Assembly: GCA_965219415.1 (NCBI GenBank)
Contig: OZ244742.1
Coordinates: 512,001-576,000 of the forward strand
DNA: 64,000 nt
Source: Candidatus Marinacidobacterales bacterium
GTDB lineage: Bacteria > Acidobacteriota > Vicinamibacteria > Marinacidobacterales > DATDRI01
Direction of reading: 5' to 3'
The notes beneath the pieces were generated by a model. It saw only the letters and a program-made list of their open reading frames with translations, was not told where the DNA came from and made no database searches. This document shows, one piece after another, positions 25,106 to 35,528 of the stretch (position 1 is its first letter; the number at the start of each line of letters is the position of its first letter). The position numbers and the translations under genes are program-made.

Positions 25106-26472
25106 GGATGTGTGCCGAGGTCCGTGGAAAAAGAACGGTGCCCTCCACTCCGTCATCAGAGTATCATATCAGGCGGCGACCTCCGCGTGTTCGAGAGCCT
25201 CGCTCAGACGTTGGTAGCCGTCGATGCGTCGTAGTTGAATCTGGCCAGAGGCGATAAACCCAAACAGCAAAGCGACCGCAGACTCCTCGCTGGAGAACGA
25301 CGCTTGGGTTTTCGTCCGGCGTCGAAACTCGCGGTTGAGATTCTCCAGAGCATTGGTCGTTCGAAACGATTTCCACATGGCACGAGGGAATTCGTAGAAG
25401 GTCAGCAGCTGATTACCGGCCTCCTCTAGGCTTCGGACGACGGCCGGCGCGAGAGGCGTCCACTTGGCGACGAGCTCGTCATAGGCTTTGCGAGCATCGA
25501 TCCCGTTCTTGGCGTAGACGATCCGGTTGTAGTCACGCCGGAGCTCACGGCGTGCGTGCGCCGGGCAATGTTGGAGCAAGTTGGCGCGCTTGTGCTCGGT
25601 ACATCGCTGCAACCGGCACCCCGGCCACTTCTCCAGCGCTTTCGTCAGCCCCTTGTGGCCGTCGCTGATCACTAGCTTGGGAGCCCGGAGTCCTCGAGCC
25701 TGGAGTCCCTCCAGCACGGAGCCCCAATGCGTCGAGGCTTCGCTCACCGCCAGACGCAATGACAACAGACGTTTCTGCCCGTCTGGCGCGACCCCGAGCG
25801 CGGCCAGTACGGGTACGCTGATCACACGTTTCGCCATCCGCACTTTCAGGTGGAAGCCGTCCAGGTAAACGATCGCGTAGACCTCCTCGCTGAGAGCACG
25901 GTTCTGCCATTCCTCGAAGCGCTCCTTCAGCCGGCTAACCACGCGAGACACCGCGCTCTTCGATAGGTGCTCCTCACCGAGCAGTGGTTTCAGCGCTTTG
26001 CGGACCCGGCGGCTATTTGTGCCCGACAAGTACGTCCCCAAGAGCGCCTCGTCGACCTCACGAGTCCGGCGCGCGTACCGGGGCAACAGCTCGCTCCTGA
26101 ACTCTGTCGTTTCTCCCGTTTCCTCGTCTCGCACGCGGGCTCGTGGCACCCGGAGCTCGCGAGTTCCCACCGACGTCGTCACGCGACGGGTTTCGGCTCC
26201 GTTGCGATATCCACGGCGGTCTTCCGCACGCTCGTAGCTACAACACCCCAGCGCTTGGTCGACTTCCTCCTCGAGCACAACCTCGATCGCCTCCAGTACC
26301 CGCATACGCAGCCGAAGTTGGACGAACTCCCGGTACTCGCTTACAGACTCCTTCAATATGGTGGTAGGCTTCTCCATGGCGTAATCCTCCTCCTCGCCTT
26401 TCCAGGCGCGGTTTCGTTTTGCTTAACCGGAGGTTACGCCATTCTTATTTCCACGGGAAGCGGGACGGATCC
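25106..26472 (-). mobile_element. IS256-family element copy 1 (transposase 25169-26377)
   Basis: IRs GGATGTGTGCCGAGGTCCGTGGAAA and GGATCCGTCCCGCTTCCCGTGGAAA; YLDG, SDGHKG, QRCTEHK, TTNALE motifs. Confidence 0.95.
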
Positions 26473-27074
26473 AACAGCTGCAGCCACTGACAGTCATGCA
26501 TATCGGTTTTACGCCCGGGGACGTTTTTTAACTGTCGAGCATTTACCAGCACCACTTCAAGACCCCGCGATTCAAGCAACTCATAAATCGGAATCCAATA
26601 GACGTAGGTGCTTTCCATCGCAACCGATTCGACTCCTTGCTCGATGAGCCAATCCCCCATTTGATTCAAAGACGGTGTCGTTGGGGAAAACACCCGCACG
26701 TTCACTTTACCATCCGACAAGGCCGGCCCACATACCCAATGCTCACGACTGCCAATATCGATGCCTGCTACCTTCGACCTTGTCACCGGCAGCGATTGCG
26801 GCGACGGATTCTTCGACTTCCTACCACTCTTTTTCACGCGCTTGTGCATCTCTGACCTCACATGTATTTTTGTGAGTGAAGGCTCCGGCCCGAGATGGCG
26901 ATTGTTAGGATTCTGACCCTGGGGAGTGCTTCCGTTCAAAGCCTCGCCAATGATAGGGAGCCGGCTCGGACCCAAGCTCGTCCTGGGGCATTAGTGCACC
27001 AGTGGTGCTACGGGGTTTAGCTGCCGGGGCCTTCACCGACAACCCTTTTATCAGCTCAGGTAGTTTCTCGCCTG
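26473..27074 (-). mobile_element. IS110-family element, left part: non-coding leader plus DEDD domain (ATG 26849)
   Basis: VAGIDIG, VAMESTYVYW, GRKTDMHDCQWLQLL; reading frame continues at 34006 on the + strand. Confidence 0.93.
26876..27036 (-). ncRNA. candidate IS110 bridge/seek RNA
   Basis: about 160 nt closed by a 14-bp stem with one mismatch; internal 7-8 nt segments match the element's target and donor junctions. Confidence 0.7.
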
Positions 27075-27140
27075 ATAGGGCCGGCCTCAGCCGGCGGCCT
27101 TGCTCGTCTGGACAAGATTTTGCCCCGGCAGTTCGGAGCC

Positions 27141-27671
27141 CTAACCAATCAACGTTTCGGCGGCGATGCGCTCGTAGACTCTTCGATCGCCCTCCGAAAA
27201 ACAGCAGAACACTACCCGTGCCGGTAAGGGGTTCGCTTCGAGCCAATCACGGACGGTGAGCTGGGCGATCTCCGCCGCCTTCTCGAGCGGAAAACGGTAC
27301 GCGCCGGTCGCGATGGAAGGGAAGCCAATACTCTGGAGGTCGTGCCCCTGCGCAAGCTCGAGGCTTCGTCGGTAGCAGCTCGCGAGGAGCTCGGGCTCAC
27401 GCCTCTTGCCACCGCTCCATACCGGGCCCACGGCATGGATGACATACTGTGCTAATAGTCGATACCCCTTGGTGATCTTGGCTTCGCCGGTGGCCGCGCC
27501 ACCGAGCGTCTCGCACTCCGCGAGAAGCTCCGGTCCGGCCGCCCGATGGATGGCGCCATCGACGCCGCCCCCGCCGAGCAGAGAAGTGTTGGCCGCGTTG
27601 ACAATAGCGTCGACATCCAGCTTGGTGATATCGCCCTGTGTGATCTCGACGCGACCACCTGAGTAGGGCAT
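27141..27671 (-). CDS. ymdB: macro domain protein, O-acetyl-ADP-ribose deacetylase
   Basis: GDIT..DVDAIVNAANTSLLGGGGVDGAIHRAAG, HAVGP, FPSIATGAYRFP. Confidence 0.93.
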   Translation of the reverse strand: MPYSGGRVEITQGDITKLDVDAIVNAANTSLLGGGGVDGAIHRAAGPELLAECETLGGAATGEAKITKGYRLLAQYVIHAVGPVWSGGKRREPELLASCYRRSLELAQGHDLQSIGFPSIATGAYRFPLEKAAEIAQLTVRDWLEANPLPARVVFCCFSEGDRRVYERIAAETLIG

Positions 27672-27744
27672 GGGACTTCCGACTTTATGACCGTTGCCAA
27701 ACCGGCGTCAAGCCGGAGCGGCTCCTTAGATTACGCGCAGTCAG

Positions 27745-28038
27745 GCCCTGGAGCTTGGTCCCGACGGCATTCGAGTGAACTCGGTCTCGCCAGGCTGGAT
27801 TGGGTGCCGGCTCATGGACGAATGGACCGGCGGCGATCGCGCCAAGACCGACAAGGTGGGGGGGCGCTTTCATATCCTGGGTCGGGTCGGCAATCCGGAC
27901 GAGGTCGCACGGGCGGCGTTGTTTCTTTGCTCGGATCACGCCTCGTTCATCACCGGGACGGATGTGGCGGCAGACGGAGGCTATACGGCCATGGGACCGG
28001 AGCGTACCGACGCCGCCATACCCGGGCTGATGTCTTAG
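27745..28038 (+). pseudogene. 3' fragment of SDR oxidoreductase
   Basis: ALELGPDGIRVNSVSPG...GRVGNPDEVA...ASFITGTDVAADGG; Rossmann and YxxxK region absent. Confidence 0.85.
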
Positions 28039-28043
28039 CGCAG

Positions 28044-28763
28044 CTACTCGATCACGCGAAAGCTCTGTCCTTCGGGTAGCTGAAGCGTCCTACCGTCGAA
28101 TGTGGCTTGGAACGTCTCGTCTGCGGCGTAGTGGGCCTTATCTCCTTGGACCGAAAACCACCGCATGGCCTCGAGCCGGAGCGCATCGCCCTCGCGCTGG
28201 TAGCGGCCCGAGCCTGCCAACCAACCCTCATCGGGATTCGTCACCAGCACGAAGTGTTCGTCGGTGAGGGCGAGCATGCCACGGTCCAAGGCGATGAGCT
28301 TCGTTTTCGTCGTGGGGACCCTGACGAGTTTTTCGGTGGCCCCGTTGGCGAAGCTGAGAAATAGATACTTGTCACCACGCTTGTAACTCACCTCATGGCT
28401 TGTATTGGAGCGTCCCGCCAAAAGAGTATCCTCCGCCGGTGTCACAACGATTCCGGTCTCGACGTCGAAATGCACGACGCCGCCTGACTTCACTTGGTAC
28501 CTGCCGATATGGGCGTCGGTGAGTTGGCGTTCCATGGGCTCGCTGCCGTGCATCGCTTGATGTATGAACCATCCATCGTGGAAGAGGAAAAGCCCTACCA
28601 AAGGCTTATCTCCATGGTCGGGGCCTTCGAACCGCTCGGAGGACCAAAGGTGTCTGAACGACTCGTAAGACCACAGGCCCGCGATTTCATCGGTGGAAGC
28701 CATAGAAGCTAGCGGGGGTAACAACAGCCAACAGGTCAGAGCAAGCGCGGACTTTGTTTTCAT
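28044..28763 (-). CDS. secreted hypothetical protein, possibly tandem lipocalin-like beta domains
   Basis: signal peptide MKTKSALALTCWLLLPPLA; IAGLWS and two G-R-Y motifs. Confidence 0.6.
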   Translation of the reverse strand: MKTKSALALTCWLLLPPLASMASTDEIAGLWSYESFRHLWSSERFEGPDHGDKPLVGLFLFHDGWFIHQAMHGSEPMERQLTDAHIGRYQVKSGGVVHFDVETGIVVTPAEDTLLAGRSNTSHEVSYKRGDKYLFLSFANGATEKLVRVPTTKTKLIALDRGMLALTDEHFVLVTNPDEGWLAGSGRYQREGDALRLEAMRWFSVQGDKAHYAADETFQATFDGRTLQLPEGQSFRVIE

Positions 28764-28782
28764 GTGGCCGGTTATATCACGT

Positions 28783-30830
28783 CTAAGGAAACGGGTTAAA
28801 AGCACCCTTTGCCCAGCGATCGGGAATTTTGCTCGGAAACTTCGACGACTGTTCGGTATCGGCCCAGCTGTAAACGGTGGAGAGATTGGGGTCATTGTTG
28901 GCGTCGTTGTCGCGGAAGTTGAAATCGAGGCCGATCGTTCCCACCGTTGGCAGGTCGGGATCCAGGGCGGACTTGTCGATCCGCACCTCCAGCCACCATC
29001 CCTTGTGATCCAGGGACACTGCCGAGGTCACGCCGGCCAACACCTGGTTCTTGTAGCTGCCGGTTGTTGTGAACAAGTTGACCCGGTTGGCGGCGTCGAT
29101 AACGAGCTGAATATCCGAGGTCGAGCCGCCAAGAGGGTTGGATCCGCCGTCGTTTCCGGGATCGATATAGATTTCGATGCAGTCGTTAGCCCAGTTCCTC
29201 GGCCTTCCGTTCCTCGTCTGGATGTCATCGTCTTTGATGCGAACCAGAAAGTAAAGTGTCGATGCGTCGTGGCGCGCGTAGACCTTGGCGGTGTGGTCGG
29301 GCGCCTTGGTCGGCAGGGCCAGATTAGTGGCTCTCCCCCCGAAGTAAACGATTCCTTTTTCTACGCCCACGAATGCGATGTCTCCGGAGATGACATCCCC
29401 ACCCCGGACTTTCGAAGAGAACTCACTCAAGTTCCAGTCGCCCTGTTTCCCGTCGACGACAATCGTGCCGGCCGGTTTGATGTTTAGCGTCGGCCGCGTG
29501 AGTGCCGATCCGGTCGTGAACGACCACTGGGGACCGGTTGTCGTTCCGGCATCGTTGACCCCGTCGATGCGCCATGAGTAAGTCGTTTCCGCAGCCAAGG
29601 TTCCTGGATCGAAGACCGTGGCGGTTTGATTTCCCTGGAATGCGGGAGGGGTGCTGGTACCGAAATAGACATCATGAGATGCGGCGCCGACTCCCGATGA
29701 CCACTGGAGCTCCGACTGGGCGCTGACGTTGGAGCCTCCGTTCGGTGGGTTGGGTGCGGAGGCAGGTGCGGGCGGGCCCAGCGGAGCCTTGGCTACGGTT
29801 ACGACGTCCAAGTAGAAAACGCCTTCGCCTTGGCGGCGGATGCGGAAGTCGGCCCCCTTGCTTTGGCGATTGCCGAAGAAAAGCGTCCACTACGGTCCAG
29901 GTCTTTTGACTCCAAGAATTTGGTGTCGTTTCCTATTGCCAGTTCTGGATGCACCGTGAACGCCCCCGCTCGCCGAGTCGTATTCGAGCGCAAGATTCTT
30001 GCCGTTGTCGAAGTAGGTCACGGTGATTTGAACGGCCGGCTGACTTCCCTCGAAAGCGAAGGAACCCACCACGTTGAAGTACATGTAGAGATCGGTCTCG
30101 GTATCCTCGTTCTGTCGGGCGATGCGGCCACCGATTTCGGTGACTAGGGTGTCGCCGTCACTGGGTTCGACTCGGTAGAGCCCGGACTCTTCGTCGACCC
30201 GGCCGAGATCGACATCGACCGACGAGTCTGGAAAGGGGCCACCTACCGCCACCACCCAATCGGACTGGCTGGGCGCTTCAAACGTGTGGAAGCTCGGGCT
30301 CAGGACGCCCAGAGGAATTTCTTCGTAGTCCCGCTTGGTATTGACGGCGACCGCGAAACGGGGGCCAGCCATGTTGGCAAGATCCATCGCGATCGAAGAG
30401 GCGCCTTCTTTGTAGAACAGGTAGGTGGTCTTCGACTCTCGTAGGGCTCGGCCGTCGGTCAGCCCGTTGGCAAATAGGAGGTTGGCGTTGAAACGATTCT
30501 TCCAGAAACGGGCATAGGTCAGGAGTTGGTTCGCGTTCGAGTAGGGGAGCGAGCCTTTGCTGTCTGGCAGCGGTCTTAGGTCGCCCCAGATATTCGCCAC
30601 GCCGCCGGCCATGGTCGAGTTCCAGAGGCCCCGCCGGGTCTCGGTCTGATCGTAGTCCTTCGAACGACCCTCGTTGCGGATGCGGAAGCGGTCCTCCGAC
30701 ATCACGGGTTGGCCAGGCACTGTGTTCAACGCGGCTCGATAGACGTCGTAGGTCGGCTTGTGGGTGTTCGTAGCTAGAATAGTCCAGCGGCTCGTTCCAG
30801 GTCACGAACTCGGAATGGTCCGACCCGCTG
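28783..30830 (-). pseudogene. multi-domain carbohydrate-active/surface protein with C-terminal CBM9-like domain; 5' end missing, frameshifted
   Basis: GQPVMSEDRFR..RRGLW..MAGG segment, Fn3-like YDVYFGT/YSWRID-type module, VDGKQGDW...DCIEIYID...IGLDFNFRDND. Confidence 0.7.
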
Positions 30831-31336
30831 TTGGGTCCAACACATCGCATTCGCGCCTCGAAGCAGGATGATCGGAGATCCGTTCGAATCAACTGCAACG
30901 ATGGCCGAAAAATAGATACTTTCGGGAAAGTACGGATCGCTCAAGTCAACTGACTCTGGTGTGCTCCAAGAGCTGCCTGTGTTGGCGAGGTAATAAAGCC
31001 TACTTGGAGGGTGTGGTGGTGGAACACCGAAGCTGGTCCCCACGATATAGCTGAGGTGATGTGTGCCGTCTCGCAGAAATGATGAAACGCTGTGGACCCT
31101 GTCATTAATATTGAAAACTTCCTATGATCTCTTCGCTCCAGTCACCGTTGGCAACGGAGTATGAAAGACGCCGCAGCTGATCAAACGCAGAATCAAAAAA
31201 TGCAATATGAACGTTGGGAGAAGTAGAAACGCTCGGTTGATCGATAACTAACTGGGGCCCTGACGAAGTCCGAACCGGAATTCCATTCTGTCGAAGGAAG
31301 GGCACGACAGCCCAAGAATACAGATAAACTGTAGAG
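30830..31336 (-). pseudogene. 3' part of gene X (beta-propeller-like), displaced and inverted
   Basis: joining 25086 to 31333 across the CTC TSD gives an open frame EDRSTVYLYSWAVVPFLR...VHIAFFD...WSEEII...RLYYLAN.GSSWSTPESVD. Confidence 0.75.
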
Positions 31337-32639
<1,303 letters not shown>

Positions 32640-34005
32640 GGATCCGTCCCGCTTCCGTGGAAATAAGAATGGCGTAACCTCCGGTTAAGCAAAACGAAAC
32701 CGCGCCTGGAAAGGCGAGGAGGAGGATTACGCCATGGAGAAGCCTACCACCATATTGAAGGAGTCTGTAAGCGAGTACCGGGAGTTCGTCCAACTTCGGC
32801 TGCGTATGCGGGTACTGGAGGCGATCGAGGTTGTGCTCGAGGAAGAAGTCGACCAAGCGCTGGGGTGTTGTAGCTACGAGCGTGCGGAAGACCGCCGTGG
32901 ATATCGCAACGAAGCCGAAACCCGTCGCGTGACGACGTCGGTGGGAACTCGCGAGCTCCGGGTGCCACGAGCCCGCGTGCGAGACGAGGAAACGGGAGAA
33001 ACGACAGAGTTCAGGAGCGAGCTGTTGCCCCGGTACGCGCGCCGGACTCGTGAGGTCGACGAGGCGCTCTTGGGGACGTACTTGTCGGGCGCGAATAGCC
33101 GCCGGGTCCGCAAAGCGCTGAAACCACTGCTCGGTGAGGAGCACCTATCGAAGAGCGCGGTGTCTCGCGTGGTTAGCCGGCTGAAGGAGCGCTTCGAGGA
33201 ATGGCAGAACCGTGCTCTCAGCGAGGAGGTCTACGCGATCGTTTACCTGGACGGCTTCCACCTGAAAGTGCGGATGGCGAAACGTGTGATCAGCGTACCC
33301 GTACTGGCCGCGCTCGGGGTCGCGCCAGACGGGCACAAACGTCTGTTGTCATTGCGTCTGGCGGTGAGCGAAGCCTCGACGCATCGGGGCTCCGTGCTGG
33401 AGGGACTCCAGGCTCGAGGACTCCGGGCTCCCAAGCTAGTGATCAGCGACGGCCACAAGGGGCTGACGAAAGCGCTGGAGAAGTGGCCGGGGTGCCGGTT
33501 GCAGCGATGTACCGAGCACAAGCGCGCCAACTTGCTCCAACATTGCCCGGCGCACGCACGCCGTGAGCTCCGGCGTGACTACAACCGGATCGTCTACGCC
33601 AAGAACGGGATCGATGCTCGCAAAGCCTATGACGAGCTCGTCGCCAAGTGGACGCCTCTCGCGCCGGCCGTCGTCCGAAGCCTAGAGGAGGCCGGTAATC
33701 AGCTGCTGACCTTCTACGAATTCCCTCGTGCCATGTGGAAATCGATTCGAACGACCAAAGCTCTGGAGAATCTCAACCGCGAGTTTCGACGCCGGACGAA
33801 AACCCAAGCGTCGTTCTCCAGCGAGGAGTCTGCGGTCGCTTTGCTGTTTGGGCTTATCGCCTCTGGCCAGATTCAACTACGACGCATCGACGGCTACCAA
33901 CGTCTGAGCGAGGTTCTCGAACACGCAAAGGTCACCGCCTGATATGATACTCTGATGACGGAGTGGAGGGCACCGTTCTTTTTCCACGGACCTCGGGACA
34001 CATCC
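32640..34005 (+). mobile_element. IS256-family element copy 2 (transposase 32734-33942)
   Basis: near-identical inverted copy of 25106-26472 (about 10 amino-acid differences in 402). Confidence 0.95.
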
Positions 34006-35043
34006 CAGCTGTTACACAGCTGTGGTCTGTTGCGAGGCTCGTTTCGTCCTGGTGAGTCGGTCTGCCGCCTACGCTCGCTTCACCGACAGCGTTGCAGCCT
34101 CATCGAGCAGTGTAGTCGAGCTATTCAATGGATACAGAAATCTCTGGACCAAATGAACGTTCAGGTCCATCGTGCAGTGACCGACATCACCGGCGTCACA
34201 GGCATGCTCATCGTGCGCGCCATCGTTGATGGTGAGCGTGACCCGTCAAAGCTGGCTGCATTTCGTGACCAACGCTGCAAGAAGAGCGAAGAGGAGATCG
34301 CCGAGCATCTTACCGGCACTTGGCGTGACGAGCATCTTTTCAACCTCGCATCGGCTCTGCGTCTCTACGATGCGCTACAAGCCGAAGTCGAACTGTTCGA
34401 CCAGCGTATCCTTGAAGTGCTCATCGAACTCCAGCCGCCACAACGCAGACACCACAACGTGCCAGCTCATCCAAATCCGCAAAAACGATACGACATGCAG
34501 CATCGGGGCGAGAGCGAACTGCGCAACGAGCTGTGGCGTTTTGCTGGATGCGACCTCACCAGGATCGACGGAATCAGTCCAAGTCCAACCACCGCCGCCA
34601 TTGTCCTCACCGAGATCGGATTCGACCTCTCTGATTTCCCTTTCGAAAAATTCTTCGTCTCATGGCTACATCTCGCCCCACGTCGCCCTATCTCCGGCGG
34701 TAAACAACTCTCCAAACGCCGCAACGGCGCCGGCTCCAATCGCATCGCCGGTGCCTTACGTATGGCCGCTGTATCTCTCTCCCGCTCCAAGACCGCCCTA
34801 GGCGCTTACTATCGCCGCACTGCTCGCCGTAAAGATGGCAAAACCGCCGTCTTTGCTACAGCACGCAAGCTCGCCCAGCTCGTCTTCCGCATGCTCAAAT
34901 ATGGCCACGATTACATCGATATCGGCGAACGTGCCTTCGAAGACCGTTTTCGCCAAAACCACATCAACGGTTTACAAAAGGCAGCCGAAGCTCTCGGATA
35001 CACCCTCACTCCCCAGGCTTCCGGAGGGTAGTTTCGGGTCAGG
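34006..35043 (+). mobile_element. IS110-family element, right part (coiled-coil and Tnp domain, stop 35031)
   Basis: LLHSCGLLRGSFRP, DITGVTG, RIDGIS, ISGG catalytic Ser region, ATARKLA; subterminal GGTAGTTTC then CAGG core. Confidence 0.93.
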
Positions 35044-35147
35044 TCGTCGCGAAGTCCCGTTACATCCCCTCAGAGGCCGCGAAGTTGCGTCAGCGCCGCT
35101 TGGGCGGTGTTCCGATGGGAAGGGAGGCGGCACCGACGTCGGGGCTC

Positions 35148-35281
35148 GGTGGAAAAGCTCTGGAAAACTTGTGCATAACGTGTGTGATCGTTGTGAAAAT
35201 CCCACACCCCCTATATGTTGGGGGTGGAGCCTATAAATACCCCAAAAAATGGTTGACAAAGCCTCCAAATGCCCCGACAAT
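35148..35281 (+). promoter_or_regulatory. phased DnaA-box-like array, two NrdR-box-like sites and TTGACA-N17-GACAAT promoter
   Basis: 9-mers at 35148, 35159, 35170, 35181, 35192; CCCCTATATGTTGGGG at 35208 and a weaker box at 35240; -35 at 35253. Confidence 0.6.
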
Positions 35282-35528
35282 ACGCCCCGACATTTGGAGG
35301 TTTAGGTTGGGACGAAAGGGCATTCTCTGGGTTCTAAAGCCTTTTTGAAAGGCTTCTGGGATCATCCCCTCACACGGGGTGAGGCTTCCGTCTCACCTTC
35401 CGCATTACGTTTCGCCCAAATTCTCCCCCCCGTCAAAGGTTGGTTTTCTCGCTCTTGCGCCGAATAAAAGTGGAATAGAGGACCCGCCTGCCCGGTAACC
35501 CCTCCGACACTGCAGGAGGAGGGATACC

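Follow-up and report, generated by a model that had tools for sequence, protein, structure and literature searches.

The leader of an IS110-family element found in the window, i.e. the whole stretch of 64,000 nucleotides of Candidatus Marinacidobacterales DNA analysed here, very probably encodes a guide RNA of the bridge/seek type, roughly 166 nt long, for a 462-aa DEDD recombinase of the IS110 family. Bridge/seek RNAs are established for IS110/IS1111 elements (Durrant et al. 2024, PMC11208160; Siddiquee et al. 2024, 10.1101/2024.04.26.591405). As judged from sequence comparisons, the present one is a genuine RNA of the bridge type, belonging to a distinct IS110 subfamily that is very large and mostly environmental, and it differs from the IS621 example. 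A preliminary description of the window had proposed that the leader could be read against the insertion site and the ends of its own element, a proposal that now receives strong support from the structure shared with homologues and from covariation.

The element of the window is cut in two by an IS256-family insertion, and its halves are separated by an IS256-IS256 inversion. The N-terminal part (26473..27102, minus strand), with the leader and the start of the transposase gene, comprises the first 630 nt, from first base 27102 to the IS256 insertion; element positions 1-630 align with the intact copy L005 with 4 differences and are also matched by BLAST to other copies of the genome. Transposase codons 1 to about 126 (26473..26849, minus strand) carry the DEDD_Tnp_IS110 domain (Pfam PF01548, E 1.2e-13), and the C-terminal part (34006..35040, plus strand), likewise matched by BLAST to other genome copies, carries Transposase_20 (Pfam PF02371, E 1.3e-11), with the stop codon at 35029-35031 (plus strand). 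The first part adjoins IS256-family copy 1, encoding a Mutator-type transposase (25106..26472, minus strand; Pfam PF00872, E 5e-87), and the second part adjoins copy 2 (32640..34005, plus strand), these two copies (25106-26472 and 32640-34005) having opposite orientations and 98.9% identity. An 8-bp duplication, CAGCTGTT, lies on either side of the IS110 break, and a second duplication, GGGTTTCC, flanks the outer ends of both IS256 copies and belongs to the other IS256 site. Since the target duplications CAGCTGTT/GGGTTTCC are exchanged, the 6.2-kb segment 26473-32639 was inverted by recombination between the IS256 copies, and the undoing of this inversion in the preliminary description was justified on the same grounds. 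As to the order of events, one IS256 copy entered the IS110 element, and recombination with a second, inverted copy then flipped 26473-32639. In the window copy, the RNA gene is intact and the recombinase gene is split, so that this copy could move only with the help of intact copies elsewhere in the genome. An IS3-type ORF (rve + HTH_21; 31417-32223, minus strand) adjoins IS256 copy 2, and this stretch of the genome is an insertion-sequence cluster. Once the order is restored, the immediate left neighbour of the element is a macro-domain protein gene (27141-27671, minus strand; Pfam PF01661, E 2.6e-45).

The true left end of the element is base 27102 and its core is the dinucleotide AG. About ten element copies are present in the source genome, nine of which were compared. 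The left junction had previously been placed at ccctat-CAGG, with CAGG as a core shared by both ends; this position falls inside the element, 37 bases too far in, as homology continues leftward of it for at least 19 nt in 9/9 copies and for 37 nt in 7/9, up to CAAGGCC (CAAGGCCGCCGG). On the right side, similarity among copies stops at GGGTCAG. AG, rather than CAGG, precedes the left end (27103..27104, minus strand) and follows the right end (35041..35042, plus strand, with the right flank GTCGTC next) in 36/36 copies from 13 family groups; in all 13 groups, where multi-copy groups were compared among copies of single genomes, the shared part begins just after AG and stops before AG. One group, CBDEST, consists of 5'-truncated copies and its true left end was located later.

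Outside the left core copy lies the left target half AGACG (27105..27109, minus strand), which belongs to the flank, reads GGACG in other copies and is colinear with the paralogous empty site cttgtccagacaAGgttttc. Inside, an outer left-end module (27073..27102, minus strand) is made of 8 nt, a GC-rich palindrome (27080-27095) and the motif CCCTATCA (27073-27080), at a position conserved across families. It is followed by the left subterminal inverted repeat GAAACTACC (27059..27067, minus strand; 9 bp), whose 9-bp partner at the other end (35027-35035, plus strand) contains the stop codon and precedes the left-donor half GGGTC (35036-35040, plus strand); just 11 nt, AG core included, lie downstream of the stop codon. 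Both 9-bp repeats had been correctly recognised earlier, and the strings ccctatCAGGcgaGAAACTACC (minus strand, about 27080-27059) and GGTAGTTTCgggtCAGGtcgtc (35027-35047) are present as described. In homologues, the left end starts on its outer side with about 8 nt and continues inwards with a GC-rich palindrome, then a motif of the kind GGATCATTCAGG (CCCTATCAGG in the window element) and the left inverted repeat GAAAC..., and the right end reads ...GTTTC, 5 nt and AG; an inverted-repeat partner (8-mer, at most 1 mismatch) was found in 20/36 of them. The palindrome between core and motif keeps a fixed place in 14/23 families (minimum-free-energy fold) with differing stem sequences, and its folding energy is no better than chance against shuffles (mean z -0.42).

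Unoccupied sites point to the same ends. Three unoccupied paralogues of the right flank of the window element exist in the genome, and the restored target cttgtccagacg-AG-gtcgtcgcgaag aligns gap-free with these three sites (cttgtccagaca-AG-gttttcgcgaag), from which it follows that the element sits between two AG dinucleotides. Copy C3:166k is flanked by aaatctcgtccggacgAG on one side and gttttttcc on the other, that is an intrinsic-terminator-like hairpin with the element within its 3' arm, and the orthologous hairpin is present without the element in the related genome G002; G002 alone was usable for this copy, the spacer in G001 being too diverged. A clean empty site was sought in close relatives for three further copies and was found for none of them: for C1:665k, synteny in G001 stops at the neighbouring gene; for C1:1521k, the flanks are non-contiguous in relatives; and for the window copy, the syntenic place in G001 carries an element remnant instead. 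This remnant (L025; G001:C1:1923440-1923710), in a genome of the same genus, comprises the inner left end and the RNA start and lies downstream of the orthologue of the macro-domain gene of the window; this may reflect an old insertion or two insertions at the same site. Altogether, site-specific insertion without target duplication and with a short core at both junctions, as is characteristic of the IS110 family, was observed.

The earlier layout, in which ccctat-CAGG immediately precedes the element, CAGG serves as the core and the leader copy of CCCTATCA acts as guide to the left target flank, is extremely improbable. It offers a symmetric arrangement, with CCCTATC-AG-GCGA-repeat on the left and repeat-GGGTC-AG on the right, and the 8/8 identity between leader and motif is real. 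However, the 37 nt outside the proposed junction travel with the element in 7/9 copies, and 19 nt in 9/9; the motif was never found apart from the element in this genome, where GAGGCCGGCCCTATCAGG, with at most 2 mismatches, occurs 10 times, at 9 element copies and 1 diverged remnant, with 0 free-standing occurrences; and the unoccupied paralogous sites have no motif. Moreover, the place of the motif is conserved in families with unrelated flanks, and several families, L078 and L094 among them, have the motif without a following AG. As a description of the present-day ends, this layout, whose empty sites would end ...CCCTATCAG, is refuted.

Right flanks are hardly conserved among copies of this element (+1 G in 9/9, +2 T in 7/9) and show no conservation in the Marinacidobacterales family, so the readable target amounts to only about 7-8 nt. 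The genome contains 2,439 GGACGAG sites, of which 8 are occupied. Palindromes surround 3/8 of the occupied sites vs 19/2,431 of the others, at least 3 of these 19 being opposite-strand readings of occupied sites; this enrichment may simply reflect the survival of intergenic insertions, and it is not read as a sign that hairpins are recognised. The right flank itself (35043-35300) forms with three other loci of the source genome (G000 C1:576238, C1:1808369 and C1:64893) a small paralogous family, each member being preceded by a terminator-like hairpin; the window member has no Pfam match, and its paralogues resemble by eye an HNH-type N-terminus, as a candidate assignment.

Several degenerate or rearranged forms of the element were also encountered. 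In G000, C3:2136493 and C3:617543 have a left end that diverges from that of other copies about 20 nt in, one of them appearing truncated and the other having a variant outer module (..tcgAG-CTTCGGCGGCCTTCGTGAGGCC..). C1:1979165-1980588 and C2:269447-268024, in the same genome, share an identical 232-nt deletion, through which the donor guide is lost together with the 3' half of the RNA and the beginning of the transposase gene. The mini-elements L026 (in G003) and L023 (in G001), about 65-75 nt long, contain only the left-end module and left repeat fused to the right repeat and right end, and L026 has the flanks GGACG-AG ... AG-GT; these short forms may have arisen by deletion, or may be non-autonomous elements mobilisable in trans. 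Head-to-tail tandem copies (L040, L051-L053, L078, L092/L095) are common in related families; there, a right end (TTTC-N5-AG) from the same element or from a relative of it often serves as left flank. In these tandem-copy families the target guide is nearly identical to the donor guide, so that these elements seem to target one another at the right end.

The RNA gene itself (26874..27039, minus strand; 166 nt, helices P1-P7) is matched by covariance model R1 with 149.9 bits (E 4e-31), and the leader RNA is conserved in at least 36 distinct homologues. The conserved leader was located by simple sequence anchors in 60/80 loci, the covariance model adding further loci, and alignment A1 holds 36 distinct sequences in 183 columns. 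RNAalifold on A1 gave 33 pairs, among which 12 show compensatory changes. After extension of P1 to 14 pairs, 93.2% of 1,435 cells are paired vs 83.9% in shuffles, compensatory changes on both sides are seen in 20/40 pairs, and 0/500 shuffles match any of five structure measures; sliding the 3' partners by 1-3 columns as a control left 34-56% paired. Frequent G.U pairs assign the RNA to the sense strand of the transposase gene. The window sequence alone adopts the same fold (-68.7 kcal/mol, z -2.87), and model R1 finds 10 matches in the genome, 7 of them full length. The RNA encloses two arms under one long stem, P1, which is the closing stem reported before (27023-27036 with 26876-26889), its 14 bp being more exactly 13/14 pairs with one C.A mismatch; P1 covaries strongly in the family. 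The mismatched position, A1 column 12 with 173, is C.A in the window element and 3 other sequences (CA in 4/36) and elsewhere covaries between U-A and C-G.

A scan of 26300-27400 against Rfam returned 0 matches at E up to 10, and a simple sigma-70 promoter scan together with an intrinsic terminator scan of 26780-27200 returned none. By eye only, a -10-like TGATAAAAG is seen at 27045-27053, with TAGAAT-like counterparts in other families. RNA-library contigs from three studies cover the leader, namely X16 over 26894-27049 (one difference), X15 over 26878-27068 and 26878-27006, and X19 over 26896-27098; owing to possible DNA carry-over, and as assembled contigs carry no end or strand information, they give a weak hint of expression. 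The same contigs show little or no cover of the transposase part of the stretch, such absence being uninformative.

Amid constant surroundings, three unpaired stretches of the RNA vary among families, and each covaries with a DNA partner. Segment 1 (26977..26983, minus strand), GGACGAG, i.e. 5 nt and the core AG, matches the left flank followed by AG and is referred to as the left-target guide. It is followed by C at 26976, the base with which the left end also begins, and this +1 identity holds in 20/23 loci. When 10-50 nt upstream of the left-end motif were scanned, the cognate 7-mer was perfect in 20/32 loci (mean 6.41 of 7), compared with 4/974 non-cognate pairs (mean 4.52), and 0/10,000 permutations reached the observed mean. 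The window copy has one mismatch between its left flank, AGACGAG, and its guide, GGACGAG. Two cases of natural reprogramming were observed: in L041 (94% aa identity) guide and flank both read GGGCAAG vs GGACGAG in the window element, and L106 and L073, 97.6%-identical copies from one isolate in two assembly records, differ as GGCCAG vs GGCTAG in guide and flank alike. The stretch GACGAGCT (26975-26982), formerly read against the reverse complement of the right flank, is present with its 7/8 match, and it belongs to GGACGAG(C), which reads the true left flank and AG; the match to the right flank results from a quasi-palindromic target and holds in only 2/9 copies, at paralogous sites.

Segment 2 (26913..26919, minus strand), GGGUCAG, again 5 nt and the core AG, matches the right end followed by AG and corresponds to the left-donor guide; its identity with the element right end had been rightly pointed out (GGGTCAG, 26913-26919). 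Its partner was set by position alone: wherever a reverse-complementary copy of the left repeat could be located (20/36 loci), the 5 nt following that copy were taken. Segment 2 equals these 5 nt in 18/20 loci, with 4 of 5 in one and 3 of 5 in one, and AG comes next in 20/20; the observed mean is 4.85 of 5 vs 3.24 with guides shuffled among loci, and 0/10,000 shuffles were as high. Over the aligned RNAs, AG ends the target guide in 35/36 (TG in L044) and the donor guide in 36/36.

Segment 3, CCCUAUCA (26951..26958, minus strand), is identical to the left-end motif at 27073-27080. The identity of CCCTATCA at 26951-26958 (8/8) is thus real, and it is selected; the partner is an internal left-end site and not the target flank. 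Cognate pairs reach a mean of 7.29 of 8 and non-cognate pairs 5.96, with 0/10,000 permutations as high, and the DNA site lies close to the outer side of the left inverted repeat, at a distance of 18-30 nt from the core. The partners of segments 1 and 3 were found by scanning, for which the permutations control; the loci are mutually related and not independent, and their guide sequences are diverse.

The four-segment covariation anticipated earlier is therefore found for the GGACGAG, GGGTCAG and CCCTATCA segments (0/10,000 each) and is without support for the fourth, TCGCC. The latter is complementary to GGCGA beside the motif in the window element, and by eye not in the Marinacido and Terrig families; it is more likely part of helix P5/P6 of the RNA. 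All three guide-like segments have left-guide polarity, i.e. top-strand identity. For top-strand-complementary segments of the RTG/RDG type, matching the core with the right flank or the core with the left end, column-by-position covariation gave no diagonal, and 5-mer complement scans gave no column common to more than 4/23 loci, guides shorter than 5 nt being below detection. Two of the four IS621 guide types are thus missing or too short to see.

A very unlikely alternative is that the leader is a cis-acting 5' untranslated structure controlling transposase expression, the identities with the ends being repeats bound by protein or remains of duplication. About 120 nt of one element separate segment 3 from its DNA partner, so that duplication or conversion is imaginable, right guides were not found in the 5-mer scans, and the RNA ends and binding are predicted. 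Yet the left-target segment covaries with DNA outside the element that differs among copies and families, which a role as untranslated region does not explain. The identities are, in addition, islands of 7-8 nt in unlike sequence, which argues against gene conversion, and the related IS621 and ISEc21 use leader RNAs as guides (PMC11208160; 10.1101/2024.04.26.591405).

A guide role of the leader being preferred, a further alternative bears on segment 3 only. This segment may be a second target-type guide or a relic, the outer left-end module being a captured former target and the left end being recognised by protein on the inverted repeats alone; this is rather unlikely, to a lesser degree than the two preceding alternatives. 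Its polarity of left-guide type, unlike the IS621 RDG, the AG or AA that follows the motif in many families in a core-like manner, the long recombinase (462 aa) and the repeats of 8-9 bp are in its favour. On the other side, the covariation of segment 3 is retained across families (7.29 vs 5.96 of 8; 0/10,000), which points to present selection, and the module is kept in the natural mini-elements L026 and L023, as expected of a cis site. Segment 3 would accordingly be assigned to left-end (right-donor) recognition, in replacement of an RDG of the IS621 type.

As for the recombinase, PF01548 in the N part followed by PF02371 in the C part places it in the IS110 family, and intact copies, such as G000 C1:665,045-666,697, encode 462 aa. 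By eye, GIDIG, MEST and KTDMHD in the N part correspond to the DEDD residues. The C part aligns with the IS621 transposase (PDB 8wt6; E 2.4e-9), the Ser of ISGG standing opposite the Ser of YESG, which would be the catalytic S241 provided that the solved chain has two extra N-terminal residues. The 79 related loci share 29-94% aa identity, all but one at least 41%, and come from metagenome-assembled genomes, except for one isolate, labelled Acidobacteriota, Bryobacterales, Kiritimatiellae, Opitutales, Myxococcota and others. The family comprises at least 7,999 protein clusters, 7,999/8,000 scored candidates having E 1e-20 or better, and nearly all of them are unnamed and metagenomic. Relatives in plasmid records have at most 48% identity; model R1 matches the one from a Nostoc plasmid (50.8 bits) and gave no match on the one from a Citrobacter plasmid (L119, 46% aa identity).

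With respect to known systems, a structured RNA in the non-coding end whose loops covary with target and donor, which defines a bridge RNA, was found. Likeness to IS621 further includes a DEDD + Tnp recombinase, a left-end RNA that precedes the gene and has two arms, guides for left target and left donor that have top-strand sequence and contain a 2-nt core, and a core at both junctions without duplication. In IS621, left guides pair with the bottom strand, core included, and right guides, on the 3' side, pair with the top strand (Durrant et al. 2024, PMC11208160), and handshake bases aid strand exchange (Hiraizumi et al. 2024, PMC11208158). This layout, with a 5' guide for the bottom strand and a 3' guide for the top strand in each loop, is not that of the window element, where left guides lie on the 3' sides of the loops, in contrast to the 5' sides in IS621. 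By its location on the 5' side of the donor loop, segment 3 takes the place that the left-donor guide has in IS621, but it matches the left end; such a third segment, with a left-end partner 18-30 nt from the core, is a feature unlike IS621, as is the single stem enclosing both arms. Besides, RTG/RDG top-strand guides exist in IS621 and none was detected here, the core is AG here and CT in IS621, the subterminal repeats measure 8-9 bp vs 2-3 bp, and the recombinase has 462 aa vs 326. The distinctness from IS621 claimed in the preliminary description is hence plausible, and P1, the 8-9-bp repeats with an upstream RNA and the 462-aa recombinase on which it was built are real; the actual differences are to be found in guide position, polarity and the third site.

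ISEc21 also gives rise, from an upstream non-coding region, to a short seekRNA with target-matching stretches, and reprogramming between close relatives is a further likeness (10.1101/2024.04.26.591405). It differs by a transposase of 358 aa and is not reported to have long subterminal repeats; in the window element, only one strand is matched. The IS1111 group resembles the element by its subterminal inverted repeats of 7-17 bp, within which the 9 bp found here fall, and by frequent insertion into palindromic or repeated sequences. In IS1111 the RNA lies downstream of the gene and transposases have 330-350 aa (Siddiquee et al. 2024, 10.1101/2024.04.26.591405), in contrast to the upstream RNA and the 462-aa recombinase of the present element; the long downstream non-coding region with RNA that characterises the IS1111 group is absent from the window element. 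The Evo-PIN/COMPASS preprint (10.64898/2026.10.21.760802) describes 86 bridge-RNA covariance models, many of which deviate from IS621 yet covary with target and donor. The subfamily of the window may be among these 86 models, and the third site, 18-30 nt in, may lie at or beyond the 25-nt windows used in that catalogue for donor rebuilding (10.64898/2026.10.21.760802). In the passages of this literature that were consulted, no bridge RNA is described whose three guides share one polarity or whose donor site lies away from the core.

The RNA structure, the three covariations between segment and DNA, and the element ends are matters of observation; from these, a mechanism can be proposed, in which the RNA would be produced and bound by the recombinase and its segments would act via base pairing. 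In arm 1, the P2-P3 loop carries the left-target guide on its 3' side, and this guide would bind the bottom strand through the 5 nt left of the insertion point and the AG core. In arm 2, P4/P5 and P6 delimit a large loop, whose 3' side, with the left-donor guide, would read the last 5 nt of the element and AG, and whose 5' side, with segment 3, would read the 8-nt site within the left end. Recombination at AG would then yield flank-AG-element-AG-flank, without duplication. More tentatively, and with less confidence than in the guide RNA itself, it is conceivable that the bridge RNA of this subfamily reads one DNA strand only, by means of three guides of the same polarity and no top-strand guides, with a left-end site set off from the core by a hairpin-forming spacer.

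Bridge recombinases are under development as programmable DNA-rearrangement tools and, to our knowledge, mechanistic insight into them comes almost entirely from IS621 and its close relatives. The present element offers intact, near-identical copies in one genome and a guide code readable from natural variation. For annotation, correct ends, a core and a covariance model are gained for a family without Rfam coverage. If true, a one-strand layout would suit single-strand recombination (copy-out or top-strand transfer), as well as a short, one-sided target code directed to terminator hairpins, in their 3' arms, or to right ends that belong to related elements. Should one-strand reading and the third left-end site be upheld, they would bear on the open question of single-strand movement, the strandedness of excised IS621 circles having been probed with nucleases (Xie et al. 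2026), and would widen the known design space of bridge RNAs.
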